From: a virus
Taxonomy: Duplodnaviria; Caudoviricetes
Reading direction: 5' to 3' (one strand)
DNA: 64,000 nucleotides
IMG/VR virus record: IMGVR_UViG_3300014039_000012
Span: 96,001-160,000 of that record
Part shown: positions 8,560 to 49,005 of the stretch, piece after piece
How the letters are laid out: the number at the start of each line of letters is the position of its first letter
Numbering within the stretch: position 1 is the stretch's first letter
Translations under genes and position numbers: made by a program
Notes under the pieces: generated by a model
Seen by the model: only the letters and a program-made list of their open reading frames with translations
What the model was told of the DNA's origin: nothing
Databases searched by the model: none

Positions 8560-9570
8560 ATGCTCACTGACATCAAACAAATGTTAATAGAAAACCCAGA
8601 GCACATCGTGGAATTGCTCGAAAGGTTTGAATTCTGCCATATCCATCTCAAACGAACAGAAATCCGGTTTGCTCGTAATGAAGAGGGTGGTCAAAATATC
8701 TCGATTCGGCTCGAAGATAATCCTTCAATTTATGTTAAAGATTTTGTAACAAATGAGAACGGCGACATTATCGCATATATAATGAAAAACCGCTCGGTAA
8801 AGTTTATCGAAGTTCTTTCAGAAATCAAAAGCATTCTGGGACTCGGAGACGATTGGGAGCCGCCGAAAAGAGACGCGTTGTTCGGCGGGTTTTACGACCG
8901 AATCGGAGAAGATAGACAGGTCGAAATTCAAACATATCCAGAATCGATTATGAACCAATATGTCGACAAAGGGAATCTTCGTTGGGTTCGAGACGGAATT
9001 AACCTCGAGACACAGAAGTTTTTCGATGTGCGATTCGATCCGATTGATGACTTGATTGTTTTCCCGTGGAGATCTCCGATTGGAGGAGAGATTATTGCGG
9101 TTAAGGCAAGAGTCAATCATCCGGTCGAGGACGGACAGCAAAAGTATTTTTATGTTCATAAGGGTATGGTGAGCCAGTCGTTATATAACTTTTCAGAATC
9201 ATATGATGGATTGTTCGGAAATGACATTTTGGTTTTCGAGAGCGAAAAGAGTTGTATGCAAGCACGCGGGTTTGGATATAAGAACACGGTGGCGCTTGGT
9301 TCGAGTAATCTTTCGGAAGAACAGGCGAGATTAATTATGACGTTAGCGCCGAAGTCGGTAAAGTTTTTATTAGACGAAGGACTTGAAAAAGAACATACGA
9401 TGAAAAACGTTGAGACGTTGAGACAATATTGTGTGTTTAGAGATTTGCCAATTTCTTGGTGGGATTGGCAGAAGAGCTCGGTTGTTGATGGGAGTGGAAA
9501 AGATAGTCCGACCGACTTGGGCAAAGAGAAGTTTGAAAAAGTTTTGAGAGAGGAAATGGTGGGAGTATAA
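8560..9570 (+). CDS. DNA primase (TOPRIM, YorJ-like)
   Basis: IVFPW, KY, TOPRIM VFESEKS...VALGSS...LLDEG...KDSPTD; directly upstream of the polymerase. Confidence 0.75.
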   Translation: MLTDIKQMLIENPEHIVELLERFEFCHIHLKRTEIRFARNEEGGQNISIRLEDNPSIYVKDFVTNENGDIIAYIMKNRSVKFIEVLSEIKSILGLGDDWEPPKRDALFGGFYDRIGEDRQVEIQTYPESIMNQYVDKGNLRWVRDGINLETQKFFDVRFDPIDDLIVFPWRSPIGGEIIAVKARVNHPVEDGQQKYFYVHKGMVSQSLYNFSESYDGLFGNDILVFESEKSCMQARGFGYKNTVALGSSNLSEEQARLIMTLAPKSVKFLLDEGLEKEHTMKNVETLRQYCVFRDLPISWWDWQKSSVVDGSGKDSPTDLGKEKFEKVLREEMVGV

Positions 9571-12500
9571 TGCAAAATCTTCATCGACATACTTCATATT
9601 CGAATGTATGTATTGCGGATTCCGCAGCAACAAACGAACAATATGCCAAAAGAGCCGTAGAGTTGGGGCATAAAGTGATTAGTAGCGTTGAGCACGGGTG
9701 GCAGGGATATTATTATCAATGCTATGAACTTGCTCAAAAATATAATCTAAAATTTGTTTTTGGGGCAGAAGCATATTGGGTCAAGGACAGGCAGAAGGAA
9801 TATGAAGAAATTGACCCGGCAACCGGAGAACCGTTAAAAAATAAAGATGGAACAATAAAAGCACACAAAGATAATTCTAATTGTCATATATTGCTTCTCG
9901 CAAAGACGGAAATCGGAAGACGTGCGATTAACAAGATTCTTTCAGAAGCAAACGAAACAGGATATTATTTTAGACCTCGTGTCGATCTCGAACTTCTTCT
10001 TTCTCTTCCCCCTAACGACGTAGTCGTAACAACTGCTTGCGTGGCATATTGGAAATACGATGACATTGAAGATATTACTCTTCAATTGTGGAAACATTTT
10101 GGAAAAAACTTTTATCTTGAGATTCAAGCGCACGCAACCGACCAACAAAGAGAAATCTCTCGCAGAATTCTTTCCTTGTCGCAAAGATATGGAATTGAAA
10201 TGATTGTTGGGCTTGACAGTCATTACATTTATCCAGAACAAGCGCAGGAGAGAGAATATATTCTTGAAGCGAAAGACGTCCATTACAAAGACGAAGATGG
10301 ATGGTATATGGACTATCCCGACGACGAAGAAGTTATGAGACGTTTTATGGAGCAAGGAGTTTTTACAAGAGAACAAGTCCAAAGAGCGATGGACAACACA
10401 GATATTTCTCTAACATTTGACGATTATGCAAAAGACAATCCTGTTTTTAGTAAAGACATCAAACTTCCTACTCTTTATCCCAATCTTTCGCAAGAAGAAA
10501 GAAACAAAAAATATAGTGTTCTAATTAGCAAACTTTTTAGAGAATACGCAGAAAAACATCATATTACAGGAGAAGAGTATAAGAGATATCTTGAAGGAAT
10601 CAAAATGGAGGTTCAAACAGTTAAAGATACTGGAATGGCCGACTATTTCCTTCTTGATTATGAAATTGTTAAAAGAGCAATTGAAAAAGGCGGGGTTTTG
10701 ACTGACAGTGGGAGAGGATGTTTTACGTCCGACGCAATGGCTTTAACAACGAGCGGCATCAAGCACATTAACGAAGTTAAGGTCGGAGATTTTGTAATAG
10801 ATCAAAACGGAAATCCGCAAAAGGTTATTGATACAATGGAATATGATTGTAATGAGGAAATGGTTCAGCTTCTTTATGCGTATGGACCAAATACTCATAA
10901 TCCATTGATCTGTACAAAAGATCATAAGATTTTGATTCATAGAAATGGACAAAATTCTTGGATCGAAGCCGGAAATATTCAGCAAGGAGATTATGTTTGT
11001 TCTCCAAAAATTCATTTTGAAAATCGAGCTCCTGAATATATTGATTTAAATGACTATAATATTTTTGGATATGATTTTGATGATGAATATATTTATGAAT
11101 ATCGTCCTGCGGCAAATGGTATTGTTAAATTTAATTCCATAGATGTTTCTAACCACATTGGTTGTTCCAAACCGTGGGTGTTGCAGGCTGTAAAGAACCC
11201 AGATCGAAAGAAATTTAAACATCCAGAATATGTAAATAGACTGTTAGAATATACGGGCTTTAAATCTCTTCAAGAATATAGTGATTATTTAAAAAATTCT
11301 CACGTTATCAAAATTAAAAGATTTATAAAGAATGACGAACTTTTCAATACGTGGGTTGGAATGATGTATGGAGATGGATGGGTCCGCAATTCCAAACAAA
11401 CGACGGACGTGGGTATGGCGTTCTCCACTTATGGTCATAAACAATCTTATAACCGAGAGATATGTATTAAAATGATTGAGCGTTTTGGAGCACCCTATAG
11501 GTGTGCCGTTCATAAGACAAAACAATTAGAGCAAATTATTATGAAAAGTCGTATTGTGAGTGAGTTTTGTAAAAAATTCTTATTCACAAGTAAAAAAGGA
11601 AAGGCAAAAAGTTTTAATCAAGATTTGTTTTATCAATCCGAGGACAATTTAAGAGCATTATTAAAAGGTTTGACAATTACCGATGGAAGCACCGGGAAAG
11701 AGAATAGAAGAGACAGTTTCGACAACATATCTCAAAGTATCGTTGGAGCATATAAAATTTTAGTGTCAGCAGTTGCTCATTGTCCCACAAGTTTATCTGT
11801 TAGAAAAGCCCACGAAGACAATAGAGGATATCATTCTCAAACTAGTTACAAAATAAGAATGATGAAAGATACGGACGTCCATGTGCTTTCGACATATAGA
11901 ACGCTTTCTGACGATAACTATATTTATCTTCCGGTTTCTCAAATCAAACCAATTGAAAAAGCTAAACGAAAAGTATACGACATCACGGTTGAAAATTCTC
12001 ATAGTTATGTTTTGGATAGTATAGTTGTCCACAATTCTTCAGTTGGATATTTTACAAACACTCTTCTTGGTTTTTCAAAAGTCGATAGATTTCAAAGTCC
12101 GATAACGCTCTATCCTGAGCGATTTATTAGTAAAACAAGAATTCTGGAAACCCACTCATTACCCGATTAACAACATAGTCGCCCATATAAGTGATTATAT
12201 GTGGAAAACCTCGAATATCAGGGGAAACCCTTAAGTCTTAATTACAAAACATTAGCGAAAGCAAAGTGTGGCATCGCCAATCACGATGGTATTGTAAAAA
12301 GATTAAGAATTGGGCAATCCTGAGAGATAACCCTAACCGAATTTATCGTATGGGGAGCTCGCAACGACTACCAAGAGGAATCCGAGATAACATCAACGAT
12401 TGTGGTATAGTCTATTCCGACCATTTATTTGGTGCAAATACTACGAAAGTAGCGGTAGGTCAAGATCGATATGAACTGGGGAACCCCGGAAATTGCTGAA

Positions 12501-14756
12501 GAAGCACAAAAGGAAATTCTTGGTGACGATCACGCAATTCCGATGATTGCTTTTGGAACTTGCAAAAAGAAATCTGCGTTTAAGCTTTTTGCTCGTTCGC
12601 AAAATATGAATTTTGAACTGGCAAATACTATTTCTTCACAAATTGCGGATTATGAAGAAGCCGTTAAAAACGCAGAAGATGATGATAAAGACCAGATTGA
12701 TATTTACGATTTTGTAGATAAAAAATATGCCGATTACATTGAACAGAGTAAAAAATATTGGGGCATTATTATGGATAAAAAGAAAGCGCCATGCGCGTTT
12801 CTTCTTTACCGAGGCAATATTCGAGAAGAAATTGGTCTGATTAAATGTAAGTCGGAATCAACCGGCAAAGAGTGCATAACGGCCGTTGTAGACGGGGCAA
12901 TTGCAGAAAATTACAAATTCTTGAAAAACGACATTCTTTGCGTAAGTATTGTTCTTTTGGTGGATAAGATTTATCGAAGAATCGGAATTCCGCATAAAAC
13001 AGTCGAAGAACTAAAAGAGTTTGTTAAAAACGATCCAAAAACTTGGGACATTTATAAAAACGGATATACACTTGGAGTTAATCAGTGCGAACAAGCAAGT
13101 TCTGCGAAGAAAATGATGAAATTTAAGGCAAAAAACATTTCCGAACTTTCTGCGTGGATTGCCGCAATTCGCCCCGCCTTCAAGTCAATGTATTCAAAGT
13201 TTGAATCGAGAGAATCTTTTAGTTATGGAATTCCTGCTTTTGACAAACTTCTGCAAACAGAAGAACTTCCACAGTCTTGGATTTTGTATCAGGAGCAGTC
13301 GATGTCTGTTCTTTCATATGCCGGATTTCCGATGGACGAATGTTATGGGATCATAAAAGCAATTGCTAAAAAACACCCAGAGAAAGTTCGTCCGTTGAAA
13401 GATAGGTTTATCGAAGGATTCAAAAAAAGAATTATTACAGAAGAAGGAATTGAAGAAAATCAAGCGCAGGAAATGAGCGAGAGGGTTTGGCAAATCATCA
13501 ACGACTCTTGCGGTTACGGTAAACTTTGTTGCCGTATTAAAACCTACTTAACCACGCCAGTGGGTGTCCGCATAGCGGGCTAACGGAGAACTCTAAGTCT
13601 ATAAGATATGAGAATCCCGTGCTAATCGAAAGATGAGTGTAGAGGACATCGAAAGGATATTTTAATATTAAAGCTAGTATTAAAAAAGTAACCGAGTAGA
13701 GTAGAATGTGAGACGGGCACACGTTCCAAACAGTAGGGAGATTTTAGCAAAATCTCAAGATATGTTGCAATATAGTAACCAGTATGGAAACATACATCTA
13801 TATTGTTCAATTCTGCGCACGCATATTGTATGGCAATAGATAGTCTTTCTTGTGCAATGCTGAAAGCAAATTATCCATATGAATTTTATGAGGTGCTTCT
13901 ACAATTCCATTCCGATAGAGGAGAAAAAGACAAGGTTGGAGCCCTAAAAGCGGAAATGAAAAAAGCTTTTAGTATTCAAGAAGGTCCGTATCGATTTGGA
14001 GAAGATAACCGCAAATTCAACGCAATTCCGGAAAGAGGAATTATCCAACCGTCTCTTTTGTCAATTAAGGGACTGAGCCAAGATTTGGCAAATGATCTTT
14101 ATGAACTTTCGCAAACTAAAAAGTTTGATAATTTTATAGATCTGTTAAGAGAATTCGATCATATGAAATCGATGAACATTGCGAAGTTGGATACGTTGAT
14201 TAAACTCAACTATTTCTCTCAATTCGCCCCCATCGGAAAACTTCTGAACATCGTTGAACTCTATAACAAGTTCGGAACTCGTAAGACACTCAAAGAATCC
14301 GACGTTTCCGCCCTCCCCGCGCCCGTTCAGGAAGTTATCGCAAAATATACCACCAAGCCCAAAACGCAGTATAAAATCACGGATAACGATGGAATGCTTC
14401 GTGAGCTTGCAGAAATGGTCGGAGAACGTCCGATTACAATGATGATGCGTTTGTCGTGGGAAAAGGATTATTTGGGTTACTGCGCCTCTACCGATCCGTC
14501 ACAGCAAGGAAGTTGGCTCGTTCTGGATATCGATACGAAGTTCTCTCCGAAGTTGAGCATATATTCTATCTGGAGTGGAGAACAGCGTATCGTTAAAGTC
14601 TCGAAGCGTGACTTCCAATCAAATCCTCTCGCTAAAGGTGATACAATCCGTCTCACCATTGAACAACGTCCGAAGACAAAGCTCGTGGACGGACAATGGG
14701 TAAAAGACGAAAGCGTTAAAGAAGATTGGCTAAAATATTATTCAATTGTAAAATAA
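9570..14756 (+). CDS. dnaE: DNA polymerase III alpha subunit, join(9570..12167,12465..13520,13806..14756), contains an intein
   Basis: PHP motif LHRHTSYS. Splicing restores SGRG|SSVG (intein), LPD|IDMN (intron 1) and GYG|FNSAHAY (intron 2). ILYQEQ motif. About 1534 aa precursor, about 1095 aa mature. Confidence 0.92.
10719..12035 (+). mobile_element. Intein with LAGLIDADG homing endonuclease in dnaE (439 aa)
   Basis: Starts CFTSD after GRG; block B CTKDHKI; LAGLIDADG-like VGMMYGDG and LKGLTITDG; ends VYDITV...VVHN followed by Ser +1. Confidence 0.93.
12168..12464 (+). mobile_element. Group I intron 1 in dnaE (297 nt, no endonuclease ORF)
   Basis: 5' exon ends in U with P1 CGAU/GUCG; GGGCAAUCCUGAG; P7 ACGACUA/UAGUCU; terminal G. 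Removal restores catalytic PDID. Confidence 0.9.
13521..13805 (+). mobile_element. Group I intron 2 in dnaE (285 nt, no endonuclease ORF)
   Basis: P1 UACGGU/GCCGUA with U-G at the splice site; P3 CCUACU/AGUAGG; AAUCCCGUGC; P8 GAGAUUUU/AAAAUCUC; J8/7 AAGAUA; terminal G. Removal restores YGFN.AHA. Confidence 0.85.
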
Positions 14757-27927: not shown

Positions 27928-29595
27928 ATGTTATCAGATATCGAAATTGCACAGAAAACAAAACCGAAGCACATTAAAGATGTTGCTAAAACTGCTGGAG
28001 TTCCTGAAAAATATATTGAGCAGTATGGCAATTATAAGGCAAAAATCGACTTAAAATTCCTTGAAAAATCAAAAAAGAAAAATGGAAAACTAATCCTTGT
28101 GACCGCAATGACGCCAACTCCTGCCGGCGAGGGCAAGACAACTACGACAGTTGGGCTTGCCGACGGGTTGCGCAAGATTGGTAAAAAATCTATCGTCGCC
28201 CTGCGCGAGCCGTCTCTTGGTCCGGTATTTGGAGTAAAAGGTGGGGCTTGTGGCGGCGGCTACGCGCAGGTCATCCCGATGGAGGACATCAATCTGCACT
28301 TCACCGGAGATTTCCACGCTATCGGTGCGGCAAACAACCTGCTTGCGGCAATGTTGGATAATCATATAAAGCAGGGAAACGAACTTGGAATCGATCCGCA
28401 AAAAATTACTTGGAAACGGTGCGTCGATATGAATGATCGACAATTGCGTAATATTGTCGATGGGCTTGGCGGAAACACGAATGGCGTAACGAGAGAAGAT
28501 GGATTCGATATCACGGTAGCCTCGGAAATTATGGCGGTATTTTGTCTTGCAAATTCGCTCGAAGATTTGAAGAACCGGCTTGGGAAAATCATCGTCGGAT
28601 ATACTTATAACGACGAACCTATAACCGCGAACGATCTTCGAGCAACAGGAGCGATGACGGCGTTGTTGAAAGACGCCATTAAGCCAAATCTCGTTCAAAC
28701 GCTCGAAGGAACTCCGGCGCTCGTTCACGGCGGACCATTCGCGAATATTGCCCACGGTTGTAATTCAATTCTTGCGACAAAAATGGCATTAAAACTCGGA
28801 GATTATGTTGTAACAGAAGCAGGATTCGGTGCTGATTTAGGGGCTGAAAAGTTCATCGATATTAAATGCCGAACTGCTGGATTTCATCCAAACGCAATTG
28901 TTATTGTAGTAACAATTCGCGCACTTAAAATGCACGGAGGAGTTGCAAAAGCTGATTTGGACAAGGAAAACCTCGAAGCTATAGAAATAGGCATCGAAAA
29001 TTTGATTCAGCACGTTAGCAATATTCACAGAACTTATGTTCCATATGTTGTGGCAATCAACAGATTTGCAACAGACACAAACGAAGAAGTCGAATTTTTG
29101 AAGAAATTGTGTAGCGATCGAGATATTAATGTTGTCGTTTGTGATTCTTGGGCAAAAGGCGGAAAAGGAGCAGAAGATCTCGCAAAGGAAGTCGTTCGGT
29201 TGTGCGAAGAAGATTCGTCCGATTTTACGTATTTGTATCACACAGAAGATTCAATCGAAAAAAAGATTAAAACCGTGGTGGAAGATGTTTATTGTGGTTC
29301 CGATATCAATATTCTTCCTTCGGCAAAAAGACAAATTGAAAAACTTGAGAGATTCGGATTTGGAAATCTCCCAATTTGTATCGCAAAGACACAATATAGT
29401 TTTTCCGATAATCCAACGCTTCTTAATGCTCCAATTGGATTTACGGTAACAATCAAAAATCTTAAAGTTTGCGCAGGGGCTGGATTCATTGTGGTACTGA
29501 CAGGAGATATTATGACGATGCCCGGGCTTCCAAAGCATCCTGCGGCTGAAAATATCGACGTTGACGAAGATGGTAAAATTATTGGATTATTCTAA
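27928..29595 (+). CDS. fhs: Formate--tetrahydrofolate ligase
   Basis: Full-length 555 aa: [69 protein letters not shown]. Confidence 0.97.
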
Positions 29596-47963: not shown

Positions 47964-47992
47964 TTGACAAAACGGATTTTATGTGCTATAAT
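47964..47992 (+). promoter_or_regulatory. sigmaA promoter of the ncRNA/tRNA cluster
   Basis: TTGACA 47964-47969, TATAAT 47987-47992. Predicted +1 near 47999, where a long RNA hairpin starts. Confidence 0.9.
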
Positions 47993-47998
47993 ATAAGC

Positions 47999-48112
47999 GT
48001 GAAAGGGAGAGAGCATCGGCACACGAGTAGGGAGCGGTTCAAAGCCTAAGTGATACCCGACACTAACCGCTCCCGAAGGCTCCATCGGACTCTATTTCAC
48101 TACCTCCTTTCT
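47999..48112 (+). ncRNA. Putative small RNA (long hairpin plus anti-SD tail)
   Basis: GTGAAA/TTTCAC closing stem, internal GGGAGCGGTT/AACCGCTCCC stem, 3' TACCTCCTTTCT. Confidence 0.5.
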
Positions 48113-48115
48113 TAA

Positions 48116-48205
48116 AGAACCGCAGGAACTGCGGGGATAGCCTGTTGATACTTGAAGAGACTTCATTGAGCAGGAAGCTCACTCCTCTGGGGTTGGGCAG
48201 TTCAC
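48116..48205 (+). mobile_element. Orphan IS200/IS605-family right end / TnpB omegaRNA-like scaffold, no tnpA or tnpB
   Basis: ACCGCAGGAACTGCGGGGATAGCCTG (reads RTAGTAGIAC*, like Firmicutes TnpB C-termini), CAGGAAGCTC, subterminal hairpin, ends GCAGTTCAC. Confidence 0.7.
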
Positions 48206-48329
48206 ATGAACTAGTGGTTTTCATAGTAGACTCCTTTCAAATGTGACGCCGGTCTTGGTGGTGCTTGATCGGTATGACAAAGCGGTCGGACGCTTGACAG
48301 CTCGGACAGACGGCACCTTTCTAAAACAT

Positions 48330-48420
48330 CCATCGGCAGCTTAATTGGTTCAAGCCCGCGATCTATAATCGCGAGACCCTCACAAGGCAAGTGGAGGTTC
48401 GACCCCTCCCCGATGGACCA
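48330..48420 (+). tRNA. tRNA-Ile(UAU), atypical (long variable region, C33)
   Basis: Acceptor CCATCGG/CCGATGG plus A-CCA; anticodon stem CGCGA/TCGCG, loop TC-TAT-AA; T-arm GGAGG-TTCGACC-CCTCC. Confidence 0.7.
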
Positions 48421-48453: not shown

Positions 48454-49005
48454 ATGGATATAATATGGAAAGACATCCCGGGGTATGAAGGGCTCTATCA
48501 AGTGAACCAACGGGGAGAGGTATATAGCTTATATACTGGTAAAATTTTAAAATATAGCTTTTCCACAGATGGGTATAAGCAATATAATCTTTTCAAAGAC
48601 AAGAAAAGACGGCTTATGATGGCTCATAAAGCGGTTGCGCTTGCTTTCATTCCAAATCCAGAAAATCTTCCGATGGTTAATCATAAAGATGAAAATAAAT
48701 CTAATTGCTATTATGAAAACCTTGAATGGTGTAGTTGTTTATATAACAACACATATAATGGGACTCATATTAAAAGGTCTGTTAAAAATTGTCTTACGAC
48801 ATTTCAATATAATGAATGCGGGGAATTAATTAGGATTTACTCTTCTGCAAAAGAGGCCGCAAAAGAAAACGGATTTACAGATAGTTGTATTAGCTCTTGT
48901 TGTACTGGAAATTTGTATACATATAAAAAATATGTATGGTCGCATTCAAAATTATCTAAAGAAGAAATTTTTGAAAAATTTCGTAAATCTAAACAAATTC
49001 AATAA
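48454..49005 (+). CDS. HNH homing endonuclease (NUMOD4-HNH-NUMOD1)
   Basis: WKDIPGYEGLYQV, AHKAVALAFIPNP..LPMVNHKDENKSN...NLEW. Confidence 0.88.
   Translation: MDIIWKDIPGYEGLYQVNQRGEVYSLYTGKILKYSFSTDGYKQYNLFKDKKRRLMMAHKAVALAFIPNPENLPMVNHKDENKSNCYYENLEWCSCLYNNTYNGTHIKRSVKNCLTTFQYNECGELIRIYSSAKEAAKENGFTDSCISSCCTGNLYTYKKYVWSHSKLSKEEIFEKFRKSKQIQ

Follow-up and report, generated by a model that had tools for sequence, protein, structure and literature searches.

The 91-nt element at positions 48115-48205 of the analysed phage DNA was confirmed, on the grounds of homology and covariation, as a true member of the right-end/omegaRNA scaffold family of IS200/IS605 (TnpB) elements. It lies immobile within the leader of a tRNA gene and is most likely a scaffold without dedicated function, tolerated as a relic in a phage lineage repeatedly invaded by TnpB elements. 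With a probability of roughly 0.6, it would derive from a TnpA-made insertion followed by a single deletion in which 55 nt of phage sequence were lost along with the left end and tnpB, leaving behind a transcribed immobile relic. The window, the whole stretch of 64,000 nt that was analysed, corresponds to G000:C1:96001-160000 of a 169,441-bp virus record rated complete. The features of the locus are given below in window coordinates, except for the last.

47964-47992, plus strand: sigma-70-type promoter TTGACA-17-TATAAT with TG extension, 12 of 12 hexamer matches
48000-48114, plus strand: leader module 1 with the GGGAGCGGTT/AACCGCTCCC hairpin and the tail ACCTCCTTTCTTAAAG, phage backbone outside the IS relic
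48115-48205, plus strand: IS200/IS605-family right end, equivalent to a TnpB omegaRNA scaffold, 91 nt
48120-48125 and 48129-48134, plus strand: P1 hairpin CCGCAG/CTGCGG, from the fold
48141-48174, plus strand: P2 hairpin CCTGTT.../...GAGCAGG, from the fold
48177-48198, plus strand: P3 hairpin GCTCACTCC/GGGGTTGGGC, from the fold
48199-48205, plus strand: transposon terminus AGTTCAC, right edge of the scaffold
48206-48225, plus strand: guide-equivalent flank ATGAACTAGTGGTTTTCATA, 20 nt, ancestral phage sequence 3' of the insertion site
48226-48329, plus strand: remainder of the leader (module 2 tail plus module 3), backbone, at ~98% identity to L105 and also conserved in L044 and L047
48330-48420, plus strand: tRNA with anticodon UAU and a long variable arm, 91 nt (ARAGORN; Rfam tRNA model, 43.9 bits)
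48454-49005, plus strand: NUMOD4/HNH homing-endonuclease gene (Pfam NUMOD4, E = 1.3e-10), context and not part of the relic
G000:C1 about 77,940-77,992 (L103:1533-1585), outside the window: second, shorter relic, a weak match to the covariance model R2 described below

The scaffold, its family and its leader

The hairpins, the AGTTCAC end and the translation RTAGTAGIAC* listed in the earlier note were all found in the sequence. The translated frame (48116-48148) resembles the ...RTVGTTGIA(C) tails of TnpBs that overlap the same motif at other loci, a similarity by which it is recognized as a fossil of TnpB C-terminal codons. The single-sequence fold energy of the scaffold is unremarkable (z = -1.6), so that its support comes from homology and covariation instead; P1, P2 and P3 are nonetheless all kept when the 330-nt leader is folded entire.

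A degenerate pattern of the 5' third of the scaffold retrieved 33 viral contigs, which display a common architecture consisting of AAGAAC, P1, GRATAGCC, a P2 of variable length, AA, P3 and (A/G)GTTCA(C/G). Beyond GTTCA(C/G) the flanks are unrelated in dozens of copies, defining the right-end boundary. At 23 of the 33 viral loci an open reading frame stops 7-12 nt 5' of the motif or overlaps it. These TnpB frames are mostly 365-414 aa long, with two cut by the locus edge, and each starts with ...YKYRIYPN... and ends with ...DRD.NAA.NILNEG; a Pfam check of three yielded HTH_OrfB_IS605, OrfB_IS605 and the Cas12f1-like TNB domain in all three. We built a covariance model, R2, from 22 other copies, excluding the window scaffold, which scored 83.6 bits against it (E about 3e-23), the other copies in that search scoring 54-84 bits. 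Together with the upstream tnpB genes, this score bears out the identification as an orphan TnpB omegaRNA scaffold proposed earlier. Compensatory changes were observed for 15 of 23 pairs in the family alignment, the fraction of paired cells was 91.4% versus 34-50% in controls with the partners slid, and none of 500 shuffles attained the family covariation score. A closing helix GAAC/GUUC was considered as a further element of the fold and dropped, as it is absent in other subfamilies.

The same core is present in multiple copies in Lachnospiraceae, Methanolobus and other genomes. One family subgroup, ending in GGTTCAG, lies behind group I intron sequence and inserts after TTGAT; the intron sequence identifies this subgroup as group A IStrons, for which the TCAG end and insertion after TTGAT have been described (PMC13565253). 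Within a Methanolobus MAG, an archaeal genome, we observed multiple copies of a near-same scaffold (L067:4065-4160, minus strand; L083; L066), one of which is an orphan beginning ~12 nt 5' of the scaffold directly after CTTGAT, and further copies are internally deleted with both ends kept. No omegaRNA family of Rfam 15 matched the window scaffold. The Rfam family RF02841 Ref70 (Enterococcus sRNA 70) gave 28.1 bits against a threshold of 115, with the likeness confined to the 5' third, and the literature on Ref70 yielded nothing pertinent. Likewise, blastn against the INPHARED phages returned zero matches, and exact-pattern scans of metagenomes and viral contigs with P3 and the right end did not find a source copy.

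The promoter is located 122 nt upstream of the scaffold, in line with the consensus promoter placed about 120 nt upstream in the earlier note, and it is kept in the sister phages L044, L047, L105 and L147. As no plus-strand terminator was predicted between this promoter and the tRNA at 48330, the scaffold should be co-transcribed with the tRNA. Leader module 1 aligns near-identically in relatives that lack the scaffold. The three leader modules (48000-48114, 48226-48243 and 48315-48329) each end in a CCTTTC(T)AAA-type tail, with modules 1 and 3 conserved throughout the sister phages; the tail of module 1, ACCTCCTTTCT, resembles the 3' end of 16S rRNA. At the position of the tRNA the sister phages carry a different tRNA or tRNA-like gene (CAU in L044; variants in L047 and L105), which suggests that this part of the cluster is a swap-prone cassette beside the NUMOD4/HNH gene, where HNH_3 reached 22.8 bits, under its cut-off. 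A minus-strand 53-aa frame running through the scaffold (48063-48224; RBS GAAAGGAG, 6 nt, ATG) retains only 7 codons in the scaffold-free relatives and is thus probably not a gene. The plus-strand RNA tail is antisense to its RBS-like sequence.

Proposed loss of the transposon and history of the allele

The absence of a left end, tnpA and tnpB from the window, as reported in the earlier note, extends to the whole phage genome. Searches of all 169,441 bp detected no tnpB (Pfam PF07282 and PF01385; tblastn with 22 TnpBs) and no Y1 transposase domain of tnpA (Pfam), thereby excluding the TnpB or TldR that the note supposed might be encoded elsewhere in the phage. No left end with a subterminal hairpin beside a TAM adjoins the scaffold; instead, L105-like backbone up to TTAAAG joins it directly. 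Lacking both an adjoining left end and a transposase in the genome, the scaffold, of which the genome contains one full copy, cannot move. Any activity would by implication require a compatible TnpB in trans. Elsewhere in the window we noted a full-length formate-tetrahydrofolate ligase (27928-29595; Pfam FTHFS, 913 bits) and an intein-interrupted PHP/DNA polymerase III alpha protein (9570-12170). The RecD2 protein shows only 34% identity to Thomasclavelia phages, and the host was placed no closer than Bacillota-type.

Searches with the leader RNA and with an adjacent 419-aa protein led to the sister phages L044/L046, L045/L048, L047 and L147. In these, the promoter is kept along with modules 1 and 3 of the leader, and a conserved 55-nt segment takes the place of the scaffold, of which an R2 search of their leader loci found no trace at that site. 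This segment occupies the same place in seven relatives (L105, L135, L139, L142, L044, L047, L147) and has no notable structure (z = +0.9). For the strain level we compared 14 distinct contigs from 14 samples, on all of which the 419-aa protein and the NUMOD4 protein are exactly reproduced. The scaffold allele is present in 11 of these (11 samples), with the ten complete scaffolds identical over 91 nt and the eleventh (L145) cut at the contig end; the remaining three (L135, L139, L142) carry the 55-nt allele, as does L105. Absence in relatives, which the note regarded as evidence against its proposal, hence applies to the more distant sister phages but not at strain level, where the identical scaffold predominates (11 of 14). 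The lack of substitutions is not significant in itself, with about 1.3 changes expected from local diversity. The scaffold allele occurs on several flanking haplotypes in a population that is a dense recombination mosaic.

Comparison of the two alleles delimits both junctions. On the left, the backbone is common to both through ...CTTTCTTAAAG (TTAAAG). On the right, it resumes at ATGAACTAGTGG... (ATGAAC) or ATGCGCTAGTGG... (ATGCGC), and in the empty alleles this right flank follows directly after ...CCGGTTAA (GGTTAA). The right junction coincides with the exact family terminus, which points to a TnpA-made insertion 3' of GTTAA, and the resumption of the backbone exactly at this position upholds the scaffold/guide boundary 3' of GTTCAC that had been proposed. 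The GTTAA of the empty alleles matches four of the five positions of TTTAA, the motif of the closest complete elements and of the second relic. These complete elements, L146 (TnpB of 364 aa) and L149 (379 aa), both reside in the related phage G009 and, like the second relic, follow TTTTAA; L146 shares P1 and the base of P2 with the window scaffold, its P2 apex being 26 nt longer. A TAM of TTTAT suggested by the L019 group was superseded by these closer copies. Similarly, GTGAACAAGTGG, found after AAAG in relatives, was discarded as the counterpart of the guide since L105 and L135 place that counterpart after GGTTAA; GTGAACAAGTGG and the 12-mer at the guide start form an internal direct repeat.

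We infer a history of two steps, insertion and deletion. An IS200/IS605-family, TTTAA-targeting TnpB element, of which the scaffold would be the right end, would have been inserted by TnpA into leader module 2, 3' of ...GGTTAA. A single deletion between AAG/AAAG microhomologies, namely the backbone TTAAAG and the ...(T/A)AAG situated just 5' of AACCGCAGG in complete elements, would subsequently have removed 55 nt of backbone, the left end and tnpB. The outcome would be a bare scaffold joined to its original flank and passively transcribed with the tRNA from the strong leader promoter; the transcript would form a complete omegaRNA-like RNA, the "guide" of which would point to the unoccupied allele in sister phages. 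A different course of events, in which the element inserted after CTTAA and two deletions followed, is less parsimonious, because the extra deletion would have to end by chance exactly at the right end. With the ancestral 55-nt allele preserved in relatives and the right-end junction exact, the "trimmed IS scar" that the note had offered as one of its options becomes the favoured explanation.

Decay at other truncation points counts further for a relic. In the same genome, the second relic is a solo hybrid hairpin: TTTTAA precedes ~22 nt from the start of an L146-type left end, which is fused in the loop to the arm of a right end with AGTTCAC. It looks like the product of deletion or recombination between the two end hairpins; the empty site of this relic in sister phages has no clear TAM. 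At L040 the last 37 aa of tnpB are kept, and at L036 P3 is lost. This latter locus (L036:1428-1543, minus strand; phage G001) is another orphan scaffold of 71 bits, in which P3 has been swapped for an AT-rich hairpin bearing the GGAGG and ATG of the downstream gene, so that the relic now constitutes the leader of that gene.

Possible roles of the scaffold transcript

Several features are at odds with a mere relic. The scaffold is complete and scores like tnpB-linked copies, and its trimmed end falls almost precisely where the conserved block begins; a perfect promoter precedes it in the sense direction; and as an invariant majority allele on several haplotypes it looks as a spreading or selected element would.

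These features leave some room, at a clearly lower probability than the relic, for a functional guide that lacks a nuclease of its own. The omegaRNA would be processed from the leader and loaded onto the TnpB of a co-infecting phage or of the host; the complex would cut the allele consisting of GGTTAA and the guide sequence, and repair would copy the scaffold together with the linked tRNA/HNH region, amounting to homing or competitor exclusion by means of a borrowed foreign nuclease. Natural samples do hold perfect targets for both guide variants, as the guide counterpart is found without scaffold after GGTTAA in L105 (ATGAAC...) and, in the variant form ATGCGC..., in L135 and L139, and the GTTAA of the target provides four of the five TTTAA positions. 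The scaffold is intact and folds alike within the entire leader, its allele is in the majority on several backgrounds, a cognate-type TnpB is encoded by the related phage G009, which shares its metagenome of origin with the sister phages, and in other systems stand-alone omegaRNAs are active in trans (PMC10691335). Against a working guide, there is no nuclease in cis, the TAM differs at position -5, and the fit with available TnpBs is only putative, with a P2 apex 26 nt shorter than that of L146 and a P3 loop unlike it. Moreover, the match of guide and target follows automatically from the insertion mode of IS605 elements, and frequent general recombination accounts for the multiple backgrounds. 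"Reprogramming", as the earlier note had put it, is not borne out either: the guide is the ancestral flank as in any IS605 element, and the 20-nt sequence has no match in its own genome besides the locus itself. A 14-nt match at a gene start was set aside, as it looks like generic RBS/ATGAAAA similarity.

The polymorphism within the guide bears on the same question. A dinucleotide, AA or CG, varies at guide positions 4-5 (48209-48210; L130, L135, L138, L139), and AA and CG are each found both with and without the scaffold, giving all four combinations a mere 4 nt from the right end. Such a four-gamete pattern is not predicted by co-conversion from a break at the target; short-patch conversion or templated mutation are possible sources. 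Where the scaffold is present, AA yields the full palindrome AGTTCA-CA-TGAACT, and the upstream direct repeat GTGAACAAGTGG could serve as template in empty alleles.

Homing by TnpB elements appears to be active in the lineage, since guides of sister phages match empty sites here, a finding that also speaks for a working guide. The L111 guide matches 39 of 40 positions at window 8572-8611 (G000 104572-104611) after CTGAC, the L112 guide 30 of 32 at G000 168227-168258 (minus strand) after TTGAG, and the site of the L106 IStron guide lies at G000 about 13,276-13,307 after TTGAT. Having such near-perfect empty sites, the present genome would be a target for homing on co-infection, and the sister phages carry 2-5 intact tnpB genes. 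A separate arrangement was noted in the sister phages G006 and G007 (L112:1500-1660, minus strand; L110), where a phage-type promoter (AAAACCACTTGAC, 17 nt, TATAAT) lies between the tnpB 3' end and the scaffold. It replaces the usual tnpB tail while tnpB stays intact, and the right end runs directly up to the start codon ATG of the following gene; this promoter may serve to transcribe the guide RNA, to restore expression of the gene downstream, or for both purposes.

A nuclease-free, guide-only drive, in which an omegaRNA from its own promoter and the TnpB of co-infecting relatives or the host would convert empty alleles, is an unlikely case, slightly more so than the general notion of a working guide. 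If true, it would explain how an immobile relic came to be the invariant majority allele on multiple haplotypes.

Exaptation independent of TnpB, with the three-hairpin RNA acting as a structured spacer or as a stability or processing element of the tRNA precursor, we regard as improbable. It would agree with the scaffold allele being common, with the persistence of the three hairpins in the 330-nt leader fold and with the replacement of a segment without notable structure that is conserved in seven relatives. However, no feature links the scaffold to tRNA processing, and relatives thrive without it.

Least credible, with very little weight, is a decoy that absorbs the TnpB of invading sister phages and so shields the matching empty sites: despite the strong promoter and the near-perfect targets at G000 104572-104611 and 168227-168258, the idea is purely inferential, a precedent was not found in the literature consulted, and the scaffolds of the two sister elements concerned are divergent (27-31 bits), rendering competition for their TnpBs doubtful.

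Relation to known systems

The preferred reading as a transcribed relic implies that TnpB elements in phage genomes decay to a bare guide-RNA scaffold or a solo hybrid hairpin, and that such relics can land inside highly expressed RNA operons. If inert, the scaffold would be an ordinary IS scar and a caution against inferring function for promoter-proximal orphan scaffolds. At the same time, both alleles, both guide variants, the empty sites and cognate-type nucleases are all present in natural samples, providing a ready test case for whether stand-alone omegaRNAs act in trans between co-infecting viruses and whether a guide alone can behave as a selfish element.

With the tnpB elements of the IS200/IS605 family, including group A IStrons (PMC8612924; 10.1101/2023.03.14.532601; PMC13565253), the element shares a homologous scaffold and the three-hairpin structure, and in both the scaffold stops at the right end of the transposon, so that the flanking DNA becomes the guide. 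Unlike these elements, the scaffold described here is immobile, has no adjoining tnpB, tnpA or left end, and is predicted to be transcribed from a phage promoter within a tRNA leader. PATEs are likewise protein-less IS200/IS605 derivatives that still encode an omegaRNA, which is presumed to need TnpB in trans (10.1101/2023.03.14.532601); they keep both ends and are mobilisable, whereas the present relic consists of the right end only in a genome without Y1 transposase. TldR guide RNAs (PMC10705468; 10.64898/2026.09.22.753285) resemble it in their TnpB-type scaffold, phage setting and own upstream promoter, in contrast to which there is no tldR gene here and, within the phage genome, the guide matches its own ancestral insertion site and not the promoter of a regulated gene.

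A further parallel is formed by the stand-alone omegaRNAs of OMEGA systems, which work in trans with compatible effectors (Altae-Tran 2021, as summarised in PMC10691335) and also comprise a complete scaffold with no adjacent effector or transposase. Those omegaRNAs have effector loci in the same genome and look mobilised (PMC10691335), whereas the genome here is effector-free, holds one full copy and would have acquired it in its present form by deletion. Stand-alone scaffolds as such were already known; in the present case, wild sister phages keep its exact would-be target site.
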